This document shows positions 3,460 to 19,909 of a stretch of 23,006 nucleotides of DNA, piece by piece. Both the position numbers and the translations under genes were made by a program. How positions within the stretch are numbered: position 1 is the stretch's first letter; the number at the start of each line of letters is the position of its first letter. Below the pieces are notes generated by a model. That model was not told where the DNA came from. It saw only the letters and a program-made list of their open reading frames with translations, and made no database searches. Source of the DNA: a virus (lineage: Duplodnaviria; Heunggongvirae; Uroviricota; Caudoviricetes); the IMG/VR virus record IMGVR_UViG_2617270967_000008; one strand, written 5' to 3'.

Positions 3460-6581
<3,122 letters not shown>

Positions 6582-11080: not shown

Positions 11081-11296
11081 TTACTCTCCCCGCGCCGCCT
11101 TACGACGGTCCTCTCTGATTTTGAAATACAGGTTAGTCAGATATGTCAGCAGCCCAAACAGCAGACTTCCCAGTACGCCTATTGCCGCCCACTGAGACGG
11201 GGAAACCCTGTCCAGCAGCTGCAGGAACCAGTAGCCCGTCCCCACCGCTGACGTGGTGTATGACACACCTGTTGTGATTTTTTCCATCTGGTACAT
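11081..11296 (-). CDS. Class II holin/pinholin of the phage 21 S type, with dual-start motif (M1...M4)
   Basis: 71 aa, ...[50 protein letters not shown], resembles S21 pinholin and K-12 EssD-type holins; two TM segments. Confidence 0.85.
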
Positions 11297-11371
11297 ACCC
11301 CGTCTCCCGCAATCCGGAAGCTCACAACAACAAGAGGGGCATCAGCTCACACCGACAGCCCCTGCGCATGG

Positions 11372-11641
11372 TTACATCATCATTTCGCCGTCAGGCTGAG
11401 GCTCACTGCTACCATCAGGCTGAGACCCGACGCCATCTGAAACAGCACTGTCATCCGCAATGCCTTCCGGCTCCGGAACAGTCGGTGCGCCCAGCAGTTC
11501 ATCCAGAATGGCATCCACTTCTGCATCAAGACGCGCCTCAAGGTTCTGCCGAAGTTGCTGTTTCAGTGCGCTTCTGACTTCTTCAGAGCGCAGGACTTCC
11601 TTCACTGCTTCAGCAGTGACCAGCGATTTTATTTCTGACAT
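11372..11641 (-). CDS. Hypothetical acidic 89-aa protein upstream of the holin
   Basis: ORF from ATG 11641 (MSEIKSLV...); helical N-terminus, acidic Pro/Glu/Asp-rich tail; weak RBS. Confidence 0.4.
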   Translation of the reverse strand: MSEIKSLVTAEAVKEVLRSEEVRSALKQQLRQNLEARLDAEVDAILDELLGAPTVPEPEGIADDSAVSDGVGSQPDGSSEPQPDGEMMM

Positions 11642-11678
11642 GGTATTTTCTCGTTGAAAGGTGTTGTTAAGAAAGTTG

Positions 11679-11861
11679 CTACGGAATGAGAGGCTCTTCG
11701 GGTTTTGTTCCGGCTGACTGACTGGCACTGATTTTCTCAGCGGCCCTTTTGTCAATCTGCCTGCGCCAGAAATCTCTCACGACTCTGTACCCACCAGAAA
11801 GAAGATACAGCACACAAACTGCTGTACAGAAATACAACATAATCAGCTGTAAAAATGTCAT
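11679..11861 (-). CDS. Hypothetical 60-aa membrane peptide
   Basis: ORF with hydrophobic N-terminus (LIMLYFCTAVCVLYLLSG); overlaps the next ORF in another frame. Confidence 0.3.
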   Translation of the reverse strand: MTFLQLIMLYFCTAVCVLYLLSGGYRVVRDFWRRQIDKRAAEKISASQSAGTKPEEPLIP

Positions 11862-12009
11862 TATTCATCTCCATTATTGACATGGTCAATGCCTGCCAGT
11901 AAAAAACTCCTGCATTTTTTGCTCAGCATATTTTTGCTAAGGATGTAGCGACTTCTGCCGCCGGTTCTGGCTCCTTGTTTTCCCTGCCACGGCGGTCTTT
12001 TTTTCCTGC

Positions 12010-13953
12010 TTACGGGTTATTCACTTCCACTGTTATACTTTCAATCAGCACCGGGTAAGTCGCATTTTTAGTGATATCGGTCACGCGCAACTTGTCTGCC
12101 GTAAACGTGCCGACCGGAGACTGCGACAGCATGAATGGTGTCCCGTCCTTACCATCAATGACCGGCGTCACCTCAATACTGTTGTTACCGGCAAAACGGA
12201 AGCCCAGCGTATGCCATTCGTTATTAAATGCGCCGAATGACCCCAGCTTCGTGTTCTGCGCCGTGTTTCCTTTGTGATACATCACGTTAAGGTCTGTGGC
12301 ATCGCTCTGTACGTAGAACGATGCCAGCAGGTTATGACCGGCATTACCTTCCAGTGTGACCCCCTGAGGCAGGGAAGAAACCGGCCAGTACAGCGCCAGT
12401 GCGTACTGATTAGCCGTAAGCGCGCCATCGAGTTTAAAACGACAACTGACAAGACCACCTTTACCCAGCAGGTCCGCACCATTACCAGCATCATGCTCAA
12501 GGTACCAGGGGGCTCTTCCTGTTTCCTTGGTCAGTTTCATTGCCTTACCCCCGCTGGCTCCGGCATCATCCACGATTTGAGCCTTGCCACCTCCGGCAGC
12601 CCAACCCTGTGGTGTCAACCGTCCTTCAGACTCAGATGCCCGGTAAGCAAATAGCGTACTCATCGTCGTGGTGTCTGCGGGTGGCGTGGACGGTTTTGAT
12701 GGTGTATCAGGTGACGGCTTCTCATCCGGTGGTGTCACGGTCTGCCCGCGCATCAGTTCAGCCGTGCGCCCTGCATGGAGCATAATAGCTGAGGCCAGAC
12801 GGTCTGAAATGACGCCCCTGCGTGCCCATGAGCTGAAATGGCTGTCACGCTGTGTCGAAACAAAACTGCCCTGGGTTCGGGATGCTGCACCGTAATACCC
12901 GACAGCCACAATATCCGGGTCTTCCGCCGGAGCATTCGTTGGCGTGCTCTGTCCATTCTCATCCGTCAGGAACGGTACAAAGAAAATATTCTGTGCTTCC
13001 CTGCCCTTGTAACCGCCATATACCGCCTCATATTTATCGGCGTTAAGATTCTTCCAGTAATACGTGGTGTCACCACAAATCCACGGCACCGAGCCAGCAC
13101 TTCCGCCAACACACTGTGCAGAATATGCAGCCATATCAGCCCTGAACTGCTGCACCATAGTGGTAAACAGGCCGCTGTGCTGCTGACTGCCGTCCGCAAG
13201 ATCATTTTCCCCCTGCATCCATACCACGGCCAGAAGCCTGTTTTTCGGGTTCTTCGACAGCGCCGCTTTTGTACGGAAGAGAAAATCCTGATACAGCGGT
13301 TTACCCACTCCCCAGCGGGCTGAATTTGCCGATGCGCCAGACGTTTCGCTGAACGTGCCGTCATTACCCACGGTTAAACCAGACCCGCCACGGCAACAGG
13401 GCACCAGAAGAATCCCGGCATTCTGCGGGATATAAGGCAGAAGTTTTTTGGCAATATGCAGCCCCTGACCGACAGTCCCGTACTGGCCCTTACTCAGGTC
13501 TGCATGAGGATGGTTAAGTGCGCTCATGTCCTGAACATCATGCAGACAGTGGTCTGCCGGAATAACGTCATTGTATGCACAGGTATCACCACCCGGCGTC
13601 ACAGTGCTGCGACGGGCCAGCTGCTTAATACGGGAGTCAGGGCGATCATAGGTCTCCGGCAGAGGAAGCCCCTCACCATAGGCCATACCGTTCGACTGCC
13701 CGGCCAGGGGAATAACGTAGTAATACTCCGGTTCAGTGGTAGCCACTCCCGGAGAGCCACCAGCCCCTGTGTCGGGCACAACCACAGGCGTGGTCACATC
13801 ACCCTCTGCGGCAATGGCCTGCATCAGTGTATAAGGCGTGATAGCCACAGGACTGCCAAACGGCTGCCAGCCTTCCTTCAGTTTTTGTGTCAGTCGCTCC
13901 GCAAGGTCTGACGGCGACGCCGCCCTGACCACGTCATAGTGTTTAAATGCCAT
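12010..13953 (-). CDS. nanS: Prophage sialate O-acetylesterase (NanS-p-like; the large ORF that follows stx in Stx phages)
   Basis: N-terminus MAFKHYDVVRAASPSDLAERLTQKLKEGWQPFGSP is the characteristic start of these esterases as I recall; about 647 aa; strong RBS AAGGGGAGGA before ATG 13953. Confidence 0.8.
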   Translation of the reverse strand: MAFKHYDVVRAASPSDLAERLTQKLKEGWQPFGSPVAITPYTLMQAIAAEGDVTTPVVVPDTGAGGSPGVATTEPEYYYVIPLAGQSNGMAYGEGLPLPETYDRPDSRIKQLARRSTVTPGGDTCAYNDVIPADHCLHDVQDMSALNHPHADLSKGQYGTVGQGLHIAKKLLPYIPQNAGILLVPCCRGGSGLTVGNDGTFSETSGASANSARWGVGKPLYQDFLFRTKAALSKNPKNRLLAVVWMQGENDLADGSQQHSGLFTTMVQQFRADMAAYSAQCVGGSAGSVPWICGDTTYYWKNLNADKYEAVYGGYKGREAQNIFFVPFLTDENGQSTPTNAPAEDPDIVAVGYYGAASRTQGSFVSTQRDSHFSSWARRGVISDRLASAIMLHAGRTAELMRGQTVTPPDEKPSPDTPSKPSTPPADTTTMSTLFAYRASESEGRLTPQGWAAGGGKAQIVDDAGASGGKAMKLTKETGRAPWYLEHDAGNGADLLGKGGLVSCRFKLDGALTANQYALALYWPVSSLPQGVTLEGNAGHNLLASFYVQSDATDLNVMYHKGNTAQNTKLGSFGAFNNEWHTLGFRFAGNNSIEVTPVIDGKDGTPFMLSQSPVGTFTADKLRVTDITKNATYPVLIESITVEVNNP

Positions 13954-14040
13954 TATTCCTCCCCTTTCCGGGATTTTCCTCAACAGTTGCGGGCCACGGT
14001 CCGGCTACACGGAGAATCAAAAGAGGAGAACCGCAGCCCG

Positions 14041-14072
14041 CAAAACGAAAAAGGCCGCGCAGTTGCGCAGCC
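14041..14072 (-). terminator. Rho-independent terminator upstream of nanS-p
   Basis: Minus-strand GGCUGCGC-aacu-GCGCGGCC 8-bp stem followed by UUUUUCGUUUUG. Confidence 0.65.
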
Positions 14073-14133
14073 TTATCACAGATGGTAAAAATCAGAACAC
14101 GATAATAAAAATACCTGATGTATATTCATGCGA

Positions 14134-14165
14134 CCCGCCCGCCACTCACTGCGGGCTTTTTTTTG
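14134..14165 (+). terminator. Plus-strand hairpin followed by T8
   Basis: CCCGC-cactcact-GCGGG then TTTTTTTT on the + strand; the opposite orientation to the surrounding genes. Confidence 0.5.
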
Positions 14166-14171
14166 CCCATA

Positions 14172-14199
14172 GAAAAGCCCCTCCGGAGAGGGGCTTTTT
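14172..14199. terminator. Bidirectional rho-independent terminator
   Basis: AGCCCCTC-cgga-GAGGGGCT flanked by AAAA and TTTT. Confidence 0.65.
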
Positions 14200-14439
14200 A
14201 CAGTGGTAGTGTAGACAATTTTGCATGGTGCCGGGTGCCTCCCGGTGAGTTCAGTATCAGCACCTGAACCCGCACAGAAAGGATAAGGGTCGGTGACAAA
14301 ACACCAGTTGCTGATTGCCCCTCCGCACAGGGGGATTCACCATGCCAGTTTCTTTTAACAAACTCCCCGCAAACCAGACAACAGTCAACCGCCTGAATTG
14401 TGAGGTATTTAAAAATTTCAACGGGTAACTGATACCCTG

Positions 14440-14613
14440 CTAATCGCCTGATGCTTTCTTTTTCAGCAACGGGAAAGCAACAACCACCACACCCGCCACC
14501 AGCACACCGTCAGCCAGCACTGACATTATCCGGCTGCTGAAGTCCACCATCACCACCATCACTACCAGAAACAGCAGGAGCGCAACCACAGCCAGACGCA
14601 TTTTTACCGTCAC
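14440..14613 (-). CDS. Small two-TM hydrophobic peptide (~57 aa) translationally coupled to the TerB-like gene
   Basis: GTG 14613..14611 overlaps the TerB stop (GTGA) with GGAGA 7 nt upstream; an ATG lies at 14601; own translation MRLAVVALLLFLVVMVVMVDFSSRIMSVLADGVLVAGVVVVAFPLLKKKASGD. Below the ORF-track size cutoff. Confidence 0.45.
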   Translation of the reverse strand: MTVKMRLAVVALLLFLVVMVVMVDFSSRIMSVLADGVLVAGVVVVAFPLLKKKASGD

Positions 14614-15041
14614 AGATGATTCTCCAGACGAAGGCCCAGAACACCGGCAATCTCTTCCAGCACCTTGCGCTCTTCCGGCTCTATTTCGCCGTCTGCTTCG
14701 GCAATGGCCACCGCCACATCCAGCACGTCTTCCGCTTCACGCGTATCGTGTTTCACATCCTCGATCTCACGTAACGCCGCTCGACGACCAATTTTAAAGT
14801 TCGTATCCAGCTGACCGATAATGGTTGCGCTAATCGCATTAATTTCTGACGTAAACGCGGACAACGCAGGCTGGTTACGCAAGACCTGCTCGATCTTCGC
14901 TTTCTCTGAAGCCTCACATTCACCATCTGCATAGGCCACCAGATAGGCAGCATTAATAACCGCCTGTGCCAGATCACGTTTCTCAAACTTTTTAATTTCC
15001 ACTGCCGCTCGGCGGGCTTTTTTACCAAAAATACCAAACAT
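14610..15041 (-). CDS. TerB-domain (tellurite-resistance TerB-like) protein, cargo at the stx-equivalent position
   Basis: Two ADG-containing helix pairs (AAYLVAYADGECEASEKAKI and VAVAIAEADGEIEPEERKVLEEIAGVLG) typical of TerB; start at ATG 15041 (MFGIFGKK) with AAGGAA 8 nt upstream. Confidence 0.7.
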   Translation of the reverse strand: MFGIFGKKARRAAVEIKKFEKRDLAQAVINAAYLVAYADGECEASEKAKIEQVLRNQPALSAFTSEINAISATIIGQLDTNFKIGRRAALREIEDVKHDTREAEDVLDVAVAIAEADGEIEPEERKVLEEIAGVLGLRLENHL

Positions 15042-15181
15042 CGTGACGTTCCTTTGGGTGGGTGAGCCAACGCCCGGGAGCGATCTGCCCACAGAGAAAG
15101 TCACACTGACCACTCCGTAAGCTCACCCCCGAAAGGCTCTGTGGTTGATATGCGCCGGGCGTGGCGCGGATACAAAAAAGG

Positions 15182-15210
15182 CCCGCAAAAGCGAGCCGGG
15201 AAAAATAAGT
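15182..15210 (-). terminator. Terminator after the tRNA cluster
   Basis: Minus-strand GGCUCGC-uuuu-GCGGGCC (one G-U pair) followed by UUUUUUGU. Confidence 0.55.
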
Positions 15211-15211
15211 C

Positions 15212-15288
15212 TGGCGCGTTGTACTGGATTCGAACCAGTGACCGATTGCTTAGAAGGCAATTGCTCTGTCCGGCTGAGCTAACAACGC
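15212..15288 (-). tRNA. tRNA-Arg (anticodon UCU)
   Basis: Hand-folded cloverleaf: acceptor GCGTTGT/ACAACGC, D-arm GCTC/GAGC, anticodon loop CTTCTAA, T-arm ACTGG-TTCGAAT-CCAGT, discriminator G, encoded CCA. Confidence 0.85.
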
Positions 15289-15304
15289 AGGATACAGATA
15301 ATGA

Positions 15305-15378
15305 ACCGCCTTCGGGGATCCGAACTCCGCGCAACCAGCTTCGAAGGCTGGCGCTCTTTCCTGATGAGCTAATGGCGG
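15305..15378 (-). tRNA. tRNA-Arg-like (anticodon UCG) with non-canonical features; possibly degenerate
   Basis: Hand fold: D-arm GCTC/GAGC, anticodon arm CCAGC-CTTCGAA-GCTGG; T-loop TTCGGAT with one A-C mismatch in the T-stem; acceptor 6/7 paired, starts C1-G72, no encoded CCA. Confidence 0.5.
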
Positions 15379-15385
15379 TATGTGA

Positions 15386-15461
15386 TGGTGGCCCTTGCTG
15401 GATTTGAACCAGCGACCTGGCGATTATGAGTCGCTCGCTCTCACCACTGAGCTAAAGGGCC
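15386..15461 (-). tRNA. tRNA with anticodon CAU, resembling E. coli tRNA-Ile2 (ileX-like) rather than tRNA-Met
   Basis: Hand fold: acceptor GGCCCTT/AAGGGCC, anticodon loop CTCATAA, T-arm GCTGG-TTCAAAT-CCAGC, encoded CCA; overall resemblance to ileX as recalled. Confidence 0.8.
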
Positions 15462-15489
15462 GAGCCAAAAAATAATAATCAGATGAAAA

Positions 15490-16203
15490 TCAATAATCAA
15501 GCCCTTGCCTGGATACATATCTGTCTGGCGGGAAGCCATAATAGCGGTGAAATACAGAAATAAAGTAGGACCTGCTTGAATAACCGCATTTTTCTGCTAT
15601 AGCCTGTCCATATCCATGCCGGGAACATAACATATTTACAGCAACACGCATCCGCTCTTCCAGCAACAAGCGACTGAACATGCCCCCTTCATTTTTCAGT
15701 TTTGTCTTTAACAAACTCTCACTCATATGCAACTGTAGAGCAATCGCACAAAGCGTCCAGCTTGCTGATATATCTGTCTGAATTATCGCCCTGACTTTGG
15801 CACTTATGCTGGATAAACATCCACTTAAAAACAATGACATCCGTTCATCTGTTTCAAACAGAGACAGGCAGGCCATCATAAGAAACATATCCGTGGCCTC
15901 TCCGGAAAATCCCTGGCTGGTAATTAAAGCCGCAGCCAACGCAGGATTGTTGGGTTCCAGCAACAGGTAAAGCGGAATGTCAGTCAGACGAGTCCTCGTC
16001 AGCTTATGCTGACTTTCCAGATATTGACTTACGACGGATTCGCTTATATCGACAATTTTAACTTTGCCATAATGCATAAGGAAAAGCTCCCTGATGCATT
16101 TGGTGGCCAGAACAACTGAGCCTGGCTTAAGTGACAACGTATCCTTTTCAAGAAAAATATTAATTGGGGAGCAAACCATGATAACTGAACAGACAACAGC
16201 CAT
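15490..16203 (-). CDS. AraC/XylS-family transcriptional regulator (AppY/EnvY-like; prophage regulatory cargo)
   Basis: C-terminal double-HTH (...LLKTKLKNEGGMFSRLLLEERMRVAVNMLCS...AEKCGYSSRSYFISVFHRYYGFPP) resembles EnvY/AppY; N-terminus MAVVCSV like AppY MDYVCSV; AT-rich. Confidence 0.85.
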   Translation of the reverse strand: MAVVCSVIMVCSPINIFLEKDTLSLKPGSVVLATKCIRELFLMHYGKVKIVDISESVVSQYLESQHKLTRTRLTDIPLYLLLEPNNPALAAALITSQGFSGEATDMFLMMACLSLFETDERMSLFLSGCLSSISAKVRAIIQTDISASWTLCAIALQLHMSESLLKTKLKNEGGMFSRLLLEERMRVAVNMLCSRHGYGQAIAEKCGYSSRSYFISVFHRYYGFPPDRYVSRQGLDY

Positions 16204-16237
16204 TATAATTTTACTTTCATTAGCAATTGGTTAGCTC

Positions 16238-16268
16238 AATTATAGCCCCAAAAGGTAAATTATCATCA
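16238..16268 (-). promoter_or_regulatory. Putative sigma-70 promoter for the AraC-family gene (-10 TATAAT, -35 TTGATG, 19-bp spacer)
   Basis: Minus strand reads TTGATGataatttaccttttggggcTATAAT about 30 nt upstream of the start codon. Confidence 0.5.
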
Positions 16269-16321
16269 ACACATAAGCAAAGGACTGACAGGTGTCGCCC
16301 CCCACCAGCCGCCCATTCACC

Positions 16322-16350
16322 ACAAATAAAAAGCCTTCAGGACTGAAGGC
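16322..16350 (-). terminator. Terminator overlapping the 3' end of the small wHTH gene
   Basis: Minus-strand GCCUUCAG/CUGAAGGC hairpin followed by UUUUUAUUU. Confidence 0.6.
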
Positions 16351-16534
16351 GTCTGTAACAACCGCACTGATAGTCTGCCAGACCCACCATAACAAGCTGG
16401 GTCAGTATTAACTGGCAGCGTTCGCGTGAAAGGTAAGTATTCTGCGCAATCTCCCCGACGGTCGCCGGTTCGGTGACGCTTAATTCATTAAACACCACTC
16501 TGGCGGTTTCTGTCATATCCTGCTGTTTTAGCAT
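16337..16534 (-). CDS. Small (65-aa) putative winged-helix DNA-binding protein, first ORF after pR'/tR'
   Basis: ATG 16534 (MLKQQDMTE...) with GGAAAAGGGA upstream; TVGEIAQNTYLSRERCQLILTQLVMVGLA resembles an HTH recognition helix. Confidence 0.45.
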   Translation of the reverse strand: MLKQQDMTETARVVFNELSVTEPATVGEIAQNTYLSRERCQLILTQLVMVGLADYQCGCYRRLQS

Positions 16535-16656
16535 GTCTTTTTCCCTTTTCCGGTTAACGTGACACACCAATAACTCTTGTCGAAAAAGCCAGCAAGCTGA
16601 AAGACAGGTATTCACCGCCACCAGCGCGTTTACTGTACTGACGCGATTTCAGTCAT

Positions 16657-16680
16657 AAAAACCCCGCCAGGCGGCGGGGT
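16657..16680 (-). terminator. tR'-like terminator immediately downstream of pR'
   Basis: Minus-strand CCCCGCC-gccu-GGCGGGG followed by UUUUU. Confidence 0.7.
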
Positions 16681-16760: not shown

Positions 16761-17582
16761 CTATCGCGTTACCCTCTTTAACTGCCGCTCCGCCCATGCC
16801 TCTTCAATGTCAAACCGAACCACCAACGTATCGTAAAAGCGTTTCACTGATTTTTTCCACGTATCAAGCGTGATAGCACTCGTCACTTTGCATATGGCAT
16901 TAAATGCCTCCGTTGATGGTAGTCTTTCACAGCCACGACCACCACAACGCTGGCAGTCTCTGATAACAGGCATACCACGTTTTACCGACTCTTCACGATG
17001 AATGGCGACACCACGCCCACGGCAATCCTTACAGGCGGTGGAAACCTCACCCTTTCCGCCACACTCCGGACAGGCAACTTTTACCACCTCCCTGACTTTT
17101 TTCCATTCTTCCCAGTAAGACGGATACACACCTTTCGTACACTTTGCCCATACCGGCGGCTTACCATCCGGATACTGGACCTTGTTTGTAAAAACTACGC
17201 TTTCAATAAATTTTTCCCCATAGCAACAAGGGCACTGCTTTTTACTCGCTGCGCTGCGGGCATAATCCTCAAAAGCGTACGAAGCCATAATGCGCATCAC
17301 TACCGGTTTTATTTCTGCCGGGAGTTTTCTTAACGCCGCCACGCGATCACACCGACTGAGTGCATATTCTGTCAGCAATTCTGTTGCCCGCTCTCTGTCA
17401 TTCATACTAATGCCCATTTTACCAAGGAACGCAGAAAACCCCATCTCAGCCCGATTCTGTGTCATGCCCTGCGCGGCCATCACATCAGTGATACTCAGCG
17501 CATCTTTCGACGTTGAGGCCGATGCATCAGTCAGGCCGGGGGATTTTGGGGAGTAGTATTTCGGTAAATCTTCCAGTTTCAT
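16761..17582 (-). CDS. Q: Late-gene antiterminator Q (lambda Q family)
   Basis: Alignable to lambda Q at the N-terminus (YSPKSPGLTD...DVMAAQGM), zinc-binding cysteines, and C-terminus (TLDTWKKSVKRFYDTLVV...LKRVTR); 273 aa with insertions. Confidence 0.85.
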   Translation of the reverse strand: MKLEDLPKYYSPKSPGLTDASASTSKDALSITDVMAAQGMTQNRAEMGFSAFLGKMGISMNDRERATELLTEYALSRCDRVAALRKLPAEIKPVVMRIMASYAFEDYARSAASKKQCPCCYGEKFIESVVFTNKVQYPDGKPPVWAKCTKGVYPSYWEEWKKVREVVKVACPECGGKGEVSTACKDCRGRGVAIHREESVKRGMPVIRDCQRCGGRGCERLPSTEAFNAICKVTSAITLDTWKKSVKRFYDTLVVRFDIEEAWAERQLKRVTR

Positions 17583-19462: not shown

Positions 19463-19618
19463 TTACTCCTCAGGTTCGTAAACTGTGAAGACAGCGACCT
19501 CCGTCTGGCCGGTTCGGATTCGTACCTCGCAGAGGTCTTTCCTCGTTACCAGTGCCGTCACTATGACGGTTAAACAGATGACGATCAGGGCGATTAACAT
19601 CGCCTTTTGCTGCTTCAT
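19463..19618 (-). CDS. hokD: Hok/Gef-family type I toxin (HokD-like, 51 aa)
   Basis: MKQQKAMLIALIVICLTVIVTALVTRKDLCEVRIRTGQTEVAVFTVYEPEE is near-identical to HokD as I recall; AAGGAG RBS; an upstream in-frame ATG gives a mok-like extension. Confidence 0.85.
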   Translation of the reverse strand: MKQQKAMLIALIVICLTVIVTALVTRKDLCEVRIRTGQTEVAVFTVYEPEE

Positions 19619-19909
19619 AGCCTGCTTCTCCTTGCCTTTCGGCACGTAAGAGGCTAACCTAGATTTGCCGTTCATAGATTGAGCCTCAGATTAATGTTAA
19701 GCGTCTTGCAGGACGCGTAATGTTAACTGGGGCTTTTCTCTATCTGCCTTTTGGTATTCATGCCTGAGACAGATAGCCTCAAGCACCCGCAGCAATTCTA
19801 CTTAACTATCCTTTCCCCGCAAATCGTTTTTATCCCCAGCGACAAATCGAATACACCACCAGCGCCACCGCCATTGCGATCCCTACCGTTGTGAATGCCT
19901 CAGGCCAGG

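Follow-up and report, generated by a model that had tools for sequence, protein, structure and literature searches.

The subject of this analysis is a pair of short, overlapping genes on the minus strand of the window, by which we mean the whole 23,006-nucleotide stretch of DNA analysed here, from the IMG/VR virus record IMGVR_UViG_2617270967_000008 (Caudoviricetes). The first gene encodes a 143-aa protein of the TerB family and the second a 57-aa, very hydrophobic peptide; a conserved leader precedes them, a small RNA (sRNA) gene of the STnc100 family follows, and the region is bordered by phage tRNA genes on one side and a nanS-p-like esterase gene on the other. It is essentially certain that the pair represents tciA-tciB, an accessory cassette of phages. 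An initial annotation, made from the sequence alone, had considered this a module that could not be named and its peptide easily missed, but the gene pair is already known and annotated, and the cargo slot that holds it is already described. The two genes correspond to tciA-tciB-tciC of phage P1 (GenBank AF234172) and terB/upf69.4/upf69.6 of phage P7 (AF503408), as annotated by Łobocka et al. 2004, and further annotated homologues are found in JLK-2012, Fostie, ChrisDB and FSL SP-076. In PHROGs the families are labelled 'tellurite resistance' (phrog_632) and 'TciB-like' (phrog_1470), while the annotation pipeline PGAP names the pair 'TerB family protein + DUF3927 family protein', calls the peptide as WP_032180851.1 with its 4-nt overlap, and has identical proteins annotated in NZ_CP049845. 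Of 5426 complete E. coli genomes, 542 contain at least 80% of the cassette. Among the elements described here, only the leader RNA appears undescribed.

The assignment of the larger protein, TciA, to the TerB family was borne out by profile searches: over residues 26-138 it matches Pfam TerB (PF05099) with 59.8 bits against a cutoff of 24.4 (E=3.9e-16), and it also matches PHROG 632 (E=3e-69) and the TerB structure 2JXU of the PDB (E=1.7e-15). Its AlphaFold2 model has eight helices (predicted local distance difference test score, pLDDT, 87.4), and the top Foldseek matches of the model are the TerB-clan structures 2H5N and 2OU3, with probabilities of 1.00 and 0.87 but E-values of merely 0.015 and 0.65. 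The protein carries two acidic (A)DG-x5-E repeats; both alignments show D39, G40, E46 and E124 as fully or almost fully conserved, and the closer homologues all have D117 and G118. In overall character TciA is a cytoplasmic, soluble protein of the TerB fold, acidic and all-helical, with a basic helix at its N terminus.

The smaller protein, TciB, matches Pfam DUF3927 (PF13064; E=9.1e-20, 70.8 bits against a cutoff of 25) and PHROG 1470 (E=9e-21). It is strongly hydrophobic (grand average of hydropathy, GRAVY, 1.55), with two hydrophobic segments at about residues 7-23 and 36-50 that are flanked by K4/R6 and K51-53, in agreement with the two transmembrane (TM) segments proposed at the outset. 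Hydropathy and the positive-inside rule predict a two-TM hairpin in the inner membrane with both termini inside (N-in/C-in). Four of its residues, R6, D24, S31 and D35, are near-invariant among homologues. The DUF3927 profile has 684 database relatives, of which the best 120 are 49-90 aa long. A tblastn search of the phage collection with the 57-aa peptide returned no match, which we attribute to the low-complexity filter, since TciB is found by profile searches in many of the same records. The copy in the window contains an in-frame 9-nt duplication (VVM, residues 19-21) and is therefore 57 rather than 54 aa long; this form is unique among 120 loci, and an identical protein is annotated in NZ_CP049845.

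The stop codon of tciA and the start codon of tciB overlap by 4 nt (plus-strand tcac at 14610-14613, read as GTGA on the minus strand), and a GGAGA precedes the GTG by 7 nt; the coordinates confirm the overlap, start and ribosome-binding site that had been read from the sequence. Small profiles were run over 170 loci drawn from collections of viruses and genomes. Every one of the 80 close viral loci, and ~36 of the ~46 genome loci that encode a full-length TciA-type protein, has a TciB homologue beginning 0-22 nt after TciA, and a TciA-type protein is followed by a DUF3927 peptide on the same strand in 120 loci. The geometry of stop and start is a GTGA overlap in 86 loci and an ATG overlapping the stop by 1 nt in 21, and the coupling is kept across lambdoid, P1-like, N4-like and jumbo phages. 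With translation coupled through an overlapping stop and start in nearly all relatives, the two proteins should be made together, with a stoichiometry that we infer. Median ratios of nonsynonymous to synonymous substitution rates (dN/dS) of 0.065 for tciA and 0.34 for tciB indicate that both genes are under purifying selection, and together with its constant place behind the TerB gene this shows that the small open reading frame (ORF) is not there by chance.

Carriage of the cassette extends over very different phages. TciA-type proteins are encoded in 131 phage records, including those of virulent N4-like phages of Salmonella, Vibrio and Pseudomonas, and also in jumbo phages of Erwinia and Salmonella. 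Loci without TciB have a different small membrane ORF in its position. For example, a group of Pseudomonas loci (L006, which is phage AF, L106 and L108-L116) encodes a conserved, non-homologous 60-72-aa protein with a single TM segment and the motif C.(W/Y)YG(Y/F)QT(E/D)R.TRYAAFVGCMV...GW.PR.E.R in place of DUF3927, and in two loci of Pantoea/Rosenbergiella (L098 and L130) hydrophobic ORFs of 42-45 aa stand there. These substitutes fit a need for a membrane partner. The more distant TerB proteins among the scanned loci had no small membrane partner. In P1, P7, ChrisDB, JLK-2012 and the window, counted together as four unrelated types of phage, the cassette adjoins a tRNA cluster or lies within one. 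An obligatory link to tRNA genes was considered and rejected, as a tRNA is present within 2 kb of the cassette in just 5 of ~36 diverse genome loci; the adjacency probably reflects a shared insertion hot spot and is positional rather than functional.

Comparison with the known systems shows what the window shares with each of them. P1 and P7 carry both families in the order found here, with stop and start abutting or overlapping and with tRNA genes adjacent; their TciA proteins are 41% (P1) and 53% (P7) identical to that of the window over the full length, and the TciB motif VDF(T/S)S..(M/L)SVL(A/S)DG...WP..K is common to them and the window. They differ in possessing a third small ORF of the tciC type, which by annotation is missing from most non-P1 loci and in place of which the STnc100 sRNA follows in the window from 14374. 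They also lack the structured leader of the window, as judged by a covariance model, and the P1 cassette lies in the C1-controlled ban operon whereas that of the window lies in a Q-dependent late operon. In the lambdoid phage JLK-2012 of E. coli O55:H7, tciA/tciB are 96% identical to the window in nucleotide sequence (99% for the TciA protein) and occupy the same slot between tRNAs and an esterase gene. The tRNA set of JLK-2012 (Asn/Thr/Gly) is a different one, and the window differs further in the VVM duplication of its TciB and in having an additional AraC-type cargo, located between Q and its tRNA genes. TerB of the terZABCDEF operon (2JXU) shares its domain with TciA over nearly the full length, and both acidic ADG-x5-E repeats are kept in TciA. 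However, TciA of the window stands alone, without TerC, TerD, TerZ, TerA, TerE or TerF, and its partner is a 57-aa peptide rather than the multi-pass TerC; no ter gene other than terB was found among the window ORFs scanned, the neighbours being tRNAs, an sRNA and the esterase. Finally, the defence systems Shango, Bunzi and Dionysus also contain a TerB domain and are proposed in the literature to act at the membrane. Unlike them, the window pair is phage-borne in a lytic operon, has no PADLOC match and has no helicase/ATPase, lipid-binding or pore-forming partner.

Conservation upstream of tciA is stronger than in the protein itself. In an alignment of 250 nt upstream, the ~125 nt before the tciA start are 76-86% identical where the TciA proteins are merely 41-44% identical, and a recognisable copy of this leader exists even in the Erwinia jumbo phage ChrisDB. 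The boundary of the cassette relative to an Stx phage (15163) coincides with the 5' end of the leader. A search of Rfam 15 gave nothing for the leader at the gathering score and only noise at E up to 10 (14950-15260). The fold that we propose (Table 1) consists of a hairpin, termed P1, and three stems, of which stem A crosses stems B and C and thereby forms a pseudoknot; the distance from the end of stem B to the Shine-Dalgarno sequence is 4-6 nt.

These pairings are supported by covariation. Among 35 unique leaders, 94.6% of cells pair, as opposed to 40-47% when the partners are slid. In an alignment of 69 distinct leaders made with a covariance model lacking stems A and B, 94.3% of cells paired, and changes on both sides were seen in 19 of 30 pairs compared with 5.3±1.6 in shuffles, none of 500 shuffles reaching the observed value; three compensatory pairs fall in stem A and four in stem B, and compensatory changes are seen in four leader helices. 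Stem A occurs in the paired variants CCACAGAG/CTCTGTGG, CCGTAGAG/CTCTACGG, CCAAAGA/TCTTTGG, CAGAGAG/CTCTCTG and GAAAGT/ACTTTC, and stem B in the variants GGGTGAGC/GCTCACCC, GATGAGCCCTG/CAGGGTTCATC and GGGGTGAGTCAG/CTGACTCACCCC. A helix score proved non-discriminating for stem A (6.55 for cognate vs 5.41 for non-cognate strands), the strands being similar purine-rich runs, and the support for this stem comes from the column-wise pairing counts instead. The minimum-free-energy fold of the window's own leader (z = -1.9) is a nested alternative that shows some covariation too. The two pairings are mutually exclusive, and the leader may form either a pseudoknot or a two-state switch.

The distribution of the leader ties it to tciA. 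An exact 24-nt core is present in 119 viral contigs, 107 of which have an intact TciA ORF ~80 nt downstream; in the remaining 12 either the contig ends or tciA is disrupted, mostly by a frameshift, so that the leader lies 5' of tciA in 107/107 evaluable viral contigs. In one contig (L055) the leader (1327-1466) and tciA (at 4001) are 2.5 kb apart, which suggests an insertion between them. The covariance model did not find the leader in P1, P7, FSL SP-076 (N4-like), LIET2, or Pseudomonas and Pectobacterium-type loci, nor a second copy in the window, even with filters off. Some of the same phages have weaker copies (28-56 bits) 2-6 kb downstream, which end at the Shine-Dalgarno sequence and ATG of other ORFs (KilA-N/Ant-like, 53-aa, 246-268-aa and 110-aa) and which lie just after the lysis cassette where this is annotated (Fostie, pPE4). 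Every leader copy is preceded by the T run of an upstream terminator, and the hairpin found there in the window differs in sequence across loci at the same position, with its pairing retained. We consider the chances evenly balanced that the leader is an undescribed cis-acting RNA of tciA, composed of a hairpin and an H-type pseudoknot and shared by at least three divergent TciA classes, that serves more generally as a 'cargo-gene leader' of lambdoid late operons; it might control how genes inserted into the long Q-antiterminated transcript are translated or stabilised, or act as a switch between the two pairings.

Table 1. Features of the window around the tciA-tciB cassette, with the elements of the tciA leader and occurrences of its motif in other loci.
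Feature	Position	Strand	Evidence
Antiterminator Q	17582..16761	-	Pfam Antiterm E=5e-51
tR'-like terminator, 3' of Q	16680..16661	-	terminator scan
94-aa ORF, phrog_331	16621..16337	-	
AraC-family ORF, 237 aa, closest to YdeO/GadX	16203..15490	-	
Phage tRNA cluster Met/Ile2(cat), Arg(tcg), Arg(tct); upstream slot border	15461..15212	-	ARAGORN + Rfam tRNA
Terminator-like hairpin + T run, directly 5' of leader; 7 pairs, 6 G-C	15197..15180	-	
Structured 5' leader of tciA (putative)	15167..15042	-	alignment, covariation, covariance model 170.7 bits
Leader hairpin P1	15167..15152	-	
Leader stem A	15144..15137 with 15096..15089	-	
Leader stem B	15128..15121 with 15067..15060	-	
Leader stem C	15116..15108 with 15085..15077	-	
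tciA Shine-Dalgarno sequence	~15054..15049	-	
tciA, 143 aa; ATG 15041, TGA 14612..14610	15041..14610	-	Pfam TerB, PHROG 632
tciB, 57 aa; GTG 14613, stop 14442..14440	14613..14440	-	Pfam DUF3927, PHROG 1470
STnc100-family sRNA, directly 3' of tciB	14374..14165	-	Rfam RF02076, 145.6 bits vs gathering score 47
Terminator of STnc100 sRNA	14191..14178	-	terminator scan
Possible convergent anti-sRNA, AsxR-like, sub-threshold	14100..14161	+	Rfam AsxR 22.2 bits, E=0.54
Terminator of AsxR-like candidate	14137-14156	+	terminator scan
Strong terminator-like hairpin before nanS-p-like gene; 10 pairs, 7 G-C	14074..14051	-	
nanS-p-like esterase, DUF1737-SASA-DUF6645; downstream slot border	13983..12010	-	Pfam; collinearity
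DUF826, DUF1327, lysozyme, Rz, Nu1 and terminase genes	after esterase gene in transcription direction	-	
Further occurrences of the leader motif	L004:4975-5097; L010:4277-4420; L282:8789-8937; L093:7446-7566		

The minus strand of the window is a lambdoid late region, and the cassette lies within its Q-dependent late operon. By BLAST, the window is collinear with the Stx2a phage WGPS6 in blocks at 11081-13965 (nanS/holin), 14173-14403 (STnc100-like) and 15163-15465 (tRNAs), the last of which is 94% identical to ileZ-argN-argO of WGPS6, and the esterase gene is collinear with the 645-aa ORF 3' of stx2. Only the interval between the STnc100-like and tRNA blocks differs, being 760 bp of tciB-tciA in the window vs 1330 bp of stxB-stxA in WGPS6. 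The pair therefore occupies the stx cargo slot, between ileZ-argN-argO and the STnc100-like/nanS-p region and 3' of Q, with the cargo alone swapped, exactly as the initial annotation had supposed. The stxAB cargo of Stx phages shares with the window the insertion point, the tRNAs and the STnc100-like/anti-sRNA intergenic region; it is unrelated to tciAB, and the covariance model finds no leader motif in the stx cassette. The same site has been described as the PR' 'moron' insertion site, with convergent sRNAs between the cargo and a conserved downstream ORF (Tree et al. 2014, PMC4104026), and the window fits this sRNA pair, with STnc100 on the minus strand and a sub-threshold AsxR-like match with its own terminator on the plus strand. 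Terminator-like sites number 11 in the region vs 3.8±2.0 in shuffles, and the pair is bracketed by terminators as had been noted before, although the first one downstream belongs to the STnc100 sRNA and not to the pair. A moron in the strict sense attributed to Juhala et al. in 2000 is said to bring its own promoter plus terminator. In the window, terminators are present 3' of the pair, and a consensus search alone showed no promoter-like site at 15211-15042.

Other features of the region are recorded here in their own right. A second cargo (15490-16621, minus strand), made up of the 94-aa phrog_331 ORF and the AraC-family regulator, lies between the tR'-like terminator and the tRNAs and is absent from WGPS6 and NZ_CP049845; the regulator presumably resembles the prophage regulators PatE/PsrA/PsrB of enterohaemorrhagic E. 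coli. The tRNA at 15386-15461 (minus strand) is Met(cat) according to ARAGORN, whereas its homologues in Stx phages and RefSeq are annotated as tRNA-Ile (ileZ), and it is presumably a lysidine-modified Ile2. A sok antisense RNA at 19613-19788 (minus strand; Rfam RF01794, 112 bits) suggests that the early region of the prophage includes a toxin-antitoxin locus of the hok/sok type.

The position of the cassette bears on when it would be expressed. It belongs to a late operon, stands behind a terminator and has no recognisable promoter of its own, and the P1 copy lies in the C1-repressed ban operon; expression in lytic growth and not in the resting lysogen is for these reasons most likely. A crude consensus search predicted no promoter between the upstream terminator and tciA, and a conserved A/T-rich stretch after hairpin P1, inspected by hand for a sigma-70 promoter, has poor hexamers only. 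In P1 and P7 the operator annotations place the pair between tRNA genes of the C1-repressed ban operon, and tci transcripts of P1 have been reported 10 and 20 min into lytic infection. The P1 tci label reads 'by homology' in the annotation, several genome papers only speculate on the function of the pair, and P1 tciABC is non-essential by CRISPR interference (CRISPRi; PMC10695390). As for genomic context, Q is found upstream in 8 of 36 non-redundant loci, with matches to holins (9) and endolysins (5) commonest downstream, and repressor-proximal and P2/186-like contexts occur among these loci as well.

The reading that we tentatively prefer, at somewhat short of an even chance, is that tciAB is a lytic-phase, membrane-anchored TerB module in which a membrane partner, TciB, and a cytoplasmic protein, TciA, jointly condition the envelope of the infected cell. 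TciB would act as the membrane partner or anchor that holds the TerB domain against the inner membrane on its cytoplasmic side, so that the two proteins could be seen as a split version of membrane-tethered TerB-clan proteins; TerB proteins are reported in the literature to be peripheral membrane proteins. Translation of tciA would start right behind the pseudoknotted leader RNA, which would be the cis-acting translation or stability element of the cassette, and the pair would condition the envelope until lysis, either through ion or membrane-stress homeostasis or through protection against outside attack by colicins or superinfecting phage. Such a function would be dispensable in the laboratory.

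Several observations weigh against this proposal. We found no experimental work on any tciA or tciB homologue in the literature. Allele classes of TciA and TciB are freely recombined: two TciA classes that are ~42% identical share one TciB cluster, and P1-type TciB is found with two TciA classes, so that co-adaptation of alleles, considered as a sign of a tight interface, was rejected. No natural TciA-TciB fusion exists among the best 120 of the 684 DUF3927 relatives, and the sole TerB-DUF3927 fusions found, in the TciA relatives P0127 and P0185, are frameshift products. Given the recombined classes and frameshift-only fusions, direct contact between TciA and TciB is plausible and no more. A weak or non-sigma-70 promoter, and with it expression in the lysogen, is conceivable, the promoter scan being a crude consensus search. 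Moreover, the position between Q and the lysis genes is a general insertion hot spot, and adjacency to holin genes may mean nothing.

The initial annotation had seen the pair as a candidate abortive-infection or membrane-stress system, and a module of this kind, expressed in the lysogen for defence, abortive infection or superinfection exclusion, with TciA as the sensor of the disturbance that an incoming phage causes in the membrane and TciB as a small effector that disrupts the membrane, is the alternative that fares best, unlikely as it seems to us. Prophage cargo slots often hold defence genes, and the near-invariant Asp and Ser residues of TciB, in its membrane segments or loop, could form an ion path. 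According to the literature, TerB domains belong to the validated systems Shango, Bunzi and Dionysus, for which membrane surveillance is proposed, and the phenotypes of the ter operon are phage inhibition and colicin resistance. Nevertheless, the models of PADLOC-DB v2 match nothing above noise (the best for TciA being PDC-S48 at E=0.003 and 14.6 bits, with no match for TciB), and no system partner genes lie nearby, a helicase, ATPase or pore-forming protein included. A terminator stands upstream, a promoter is not predicted, C1 represses the P1 copy in the lysogen, and virulent N4-like and jumbo phages carry the pair with no lysogen to protect. A membrane-associated accessory role in lytic growth therefore fits better than abortive infection in a lysogen, because of the late-operon site behind a terminator, the carriage by virulent phages and the absence of a defence-model match. 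What the initial annotation observed is confirmed in every detail; its interpretation is partly supported.

The genes most often found downstream raise the prospect that the pair modulates the timing of lysis, by acting on the holin pathway or on membrane energisation against premature triggering, in the manner of an antiholin or a buffer of the proton-motive force (PMF). We regard this as rather improbable. Fostie and pPE4 do have the pair directly before their holin genes, and TciB, as a small two-TM peptide, is reminiscent of class II holins, but it matches no Pfam holin family, and the pair is far from the lysis genes in P1, P7, N4-like and jumbo phages. The Q-to-S interval is, besides, a generic site of insertion (Tree et al. 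2014, PMC4104026).

Very unlikely, in our judgement, is an anti-defence decoy, in which the phage TerB protein would mimic or titrate host TerB sensors of the Ter, Shango, Bunzi or Dionysus type. Homologues of defence components are common in phages, and carriage by virulent as well as temperate phages together with expression in the lytic programme would suit a counter-defence gene. This explanation, however, leaves the obligatory membrane peptide unaccounted for, TciA is closest to stand-alone TerB proteins rather than to those of defence systems, and evidence for an interaction of any kind is absent. Least probable of all is that the pair does what its gene names imply and confers resistance to tellurite or colicin, since for all the homology to TerB of terZABCDEF the name is purely homology-derived, in P1 as elsewhere, the scanned ORFs of the window include no other ter genes, and one paper (PMC8421299) reasons that terB of a phage should not by itself make a cell resistant.

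Overall, tciAB is among the most widespread accessory modules of enterobacterial phages, being present in ~10% of complete E. coli genomes and in P1-like plasmid-phages, N4-like phages and jumbo phages, while its label has been derived from homology only since 2004. If the pair is indeed a lytic, membrane-anchored TerB module, its study would bear on how TerB domains act in general, including those of Shango, Bunzi and Dionysus. Should the leader RNA prove real, it would represent a new class of cis-regulatory motif for cargo genes inserted into phage late operons, and it could help to explain how such genes come to be expressed from inside a very long antiterminated transcript.

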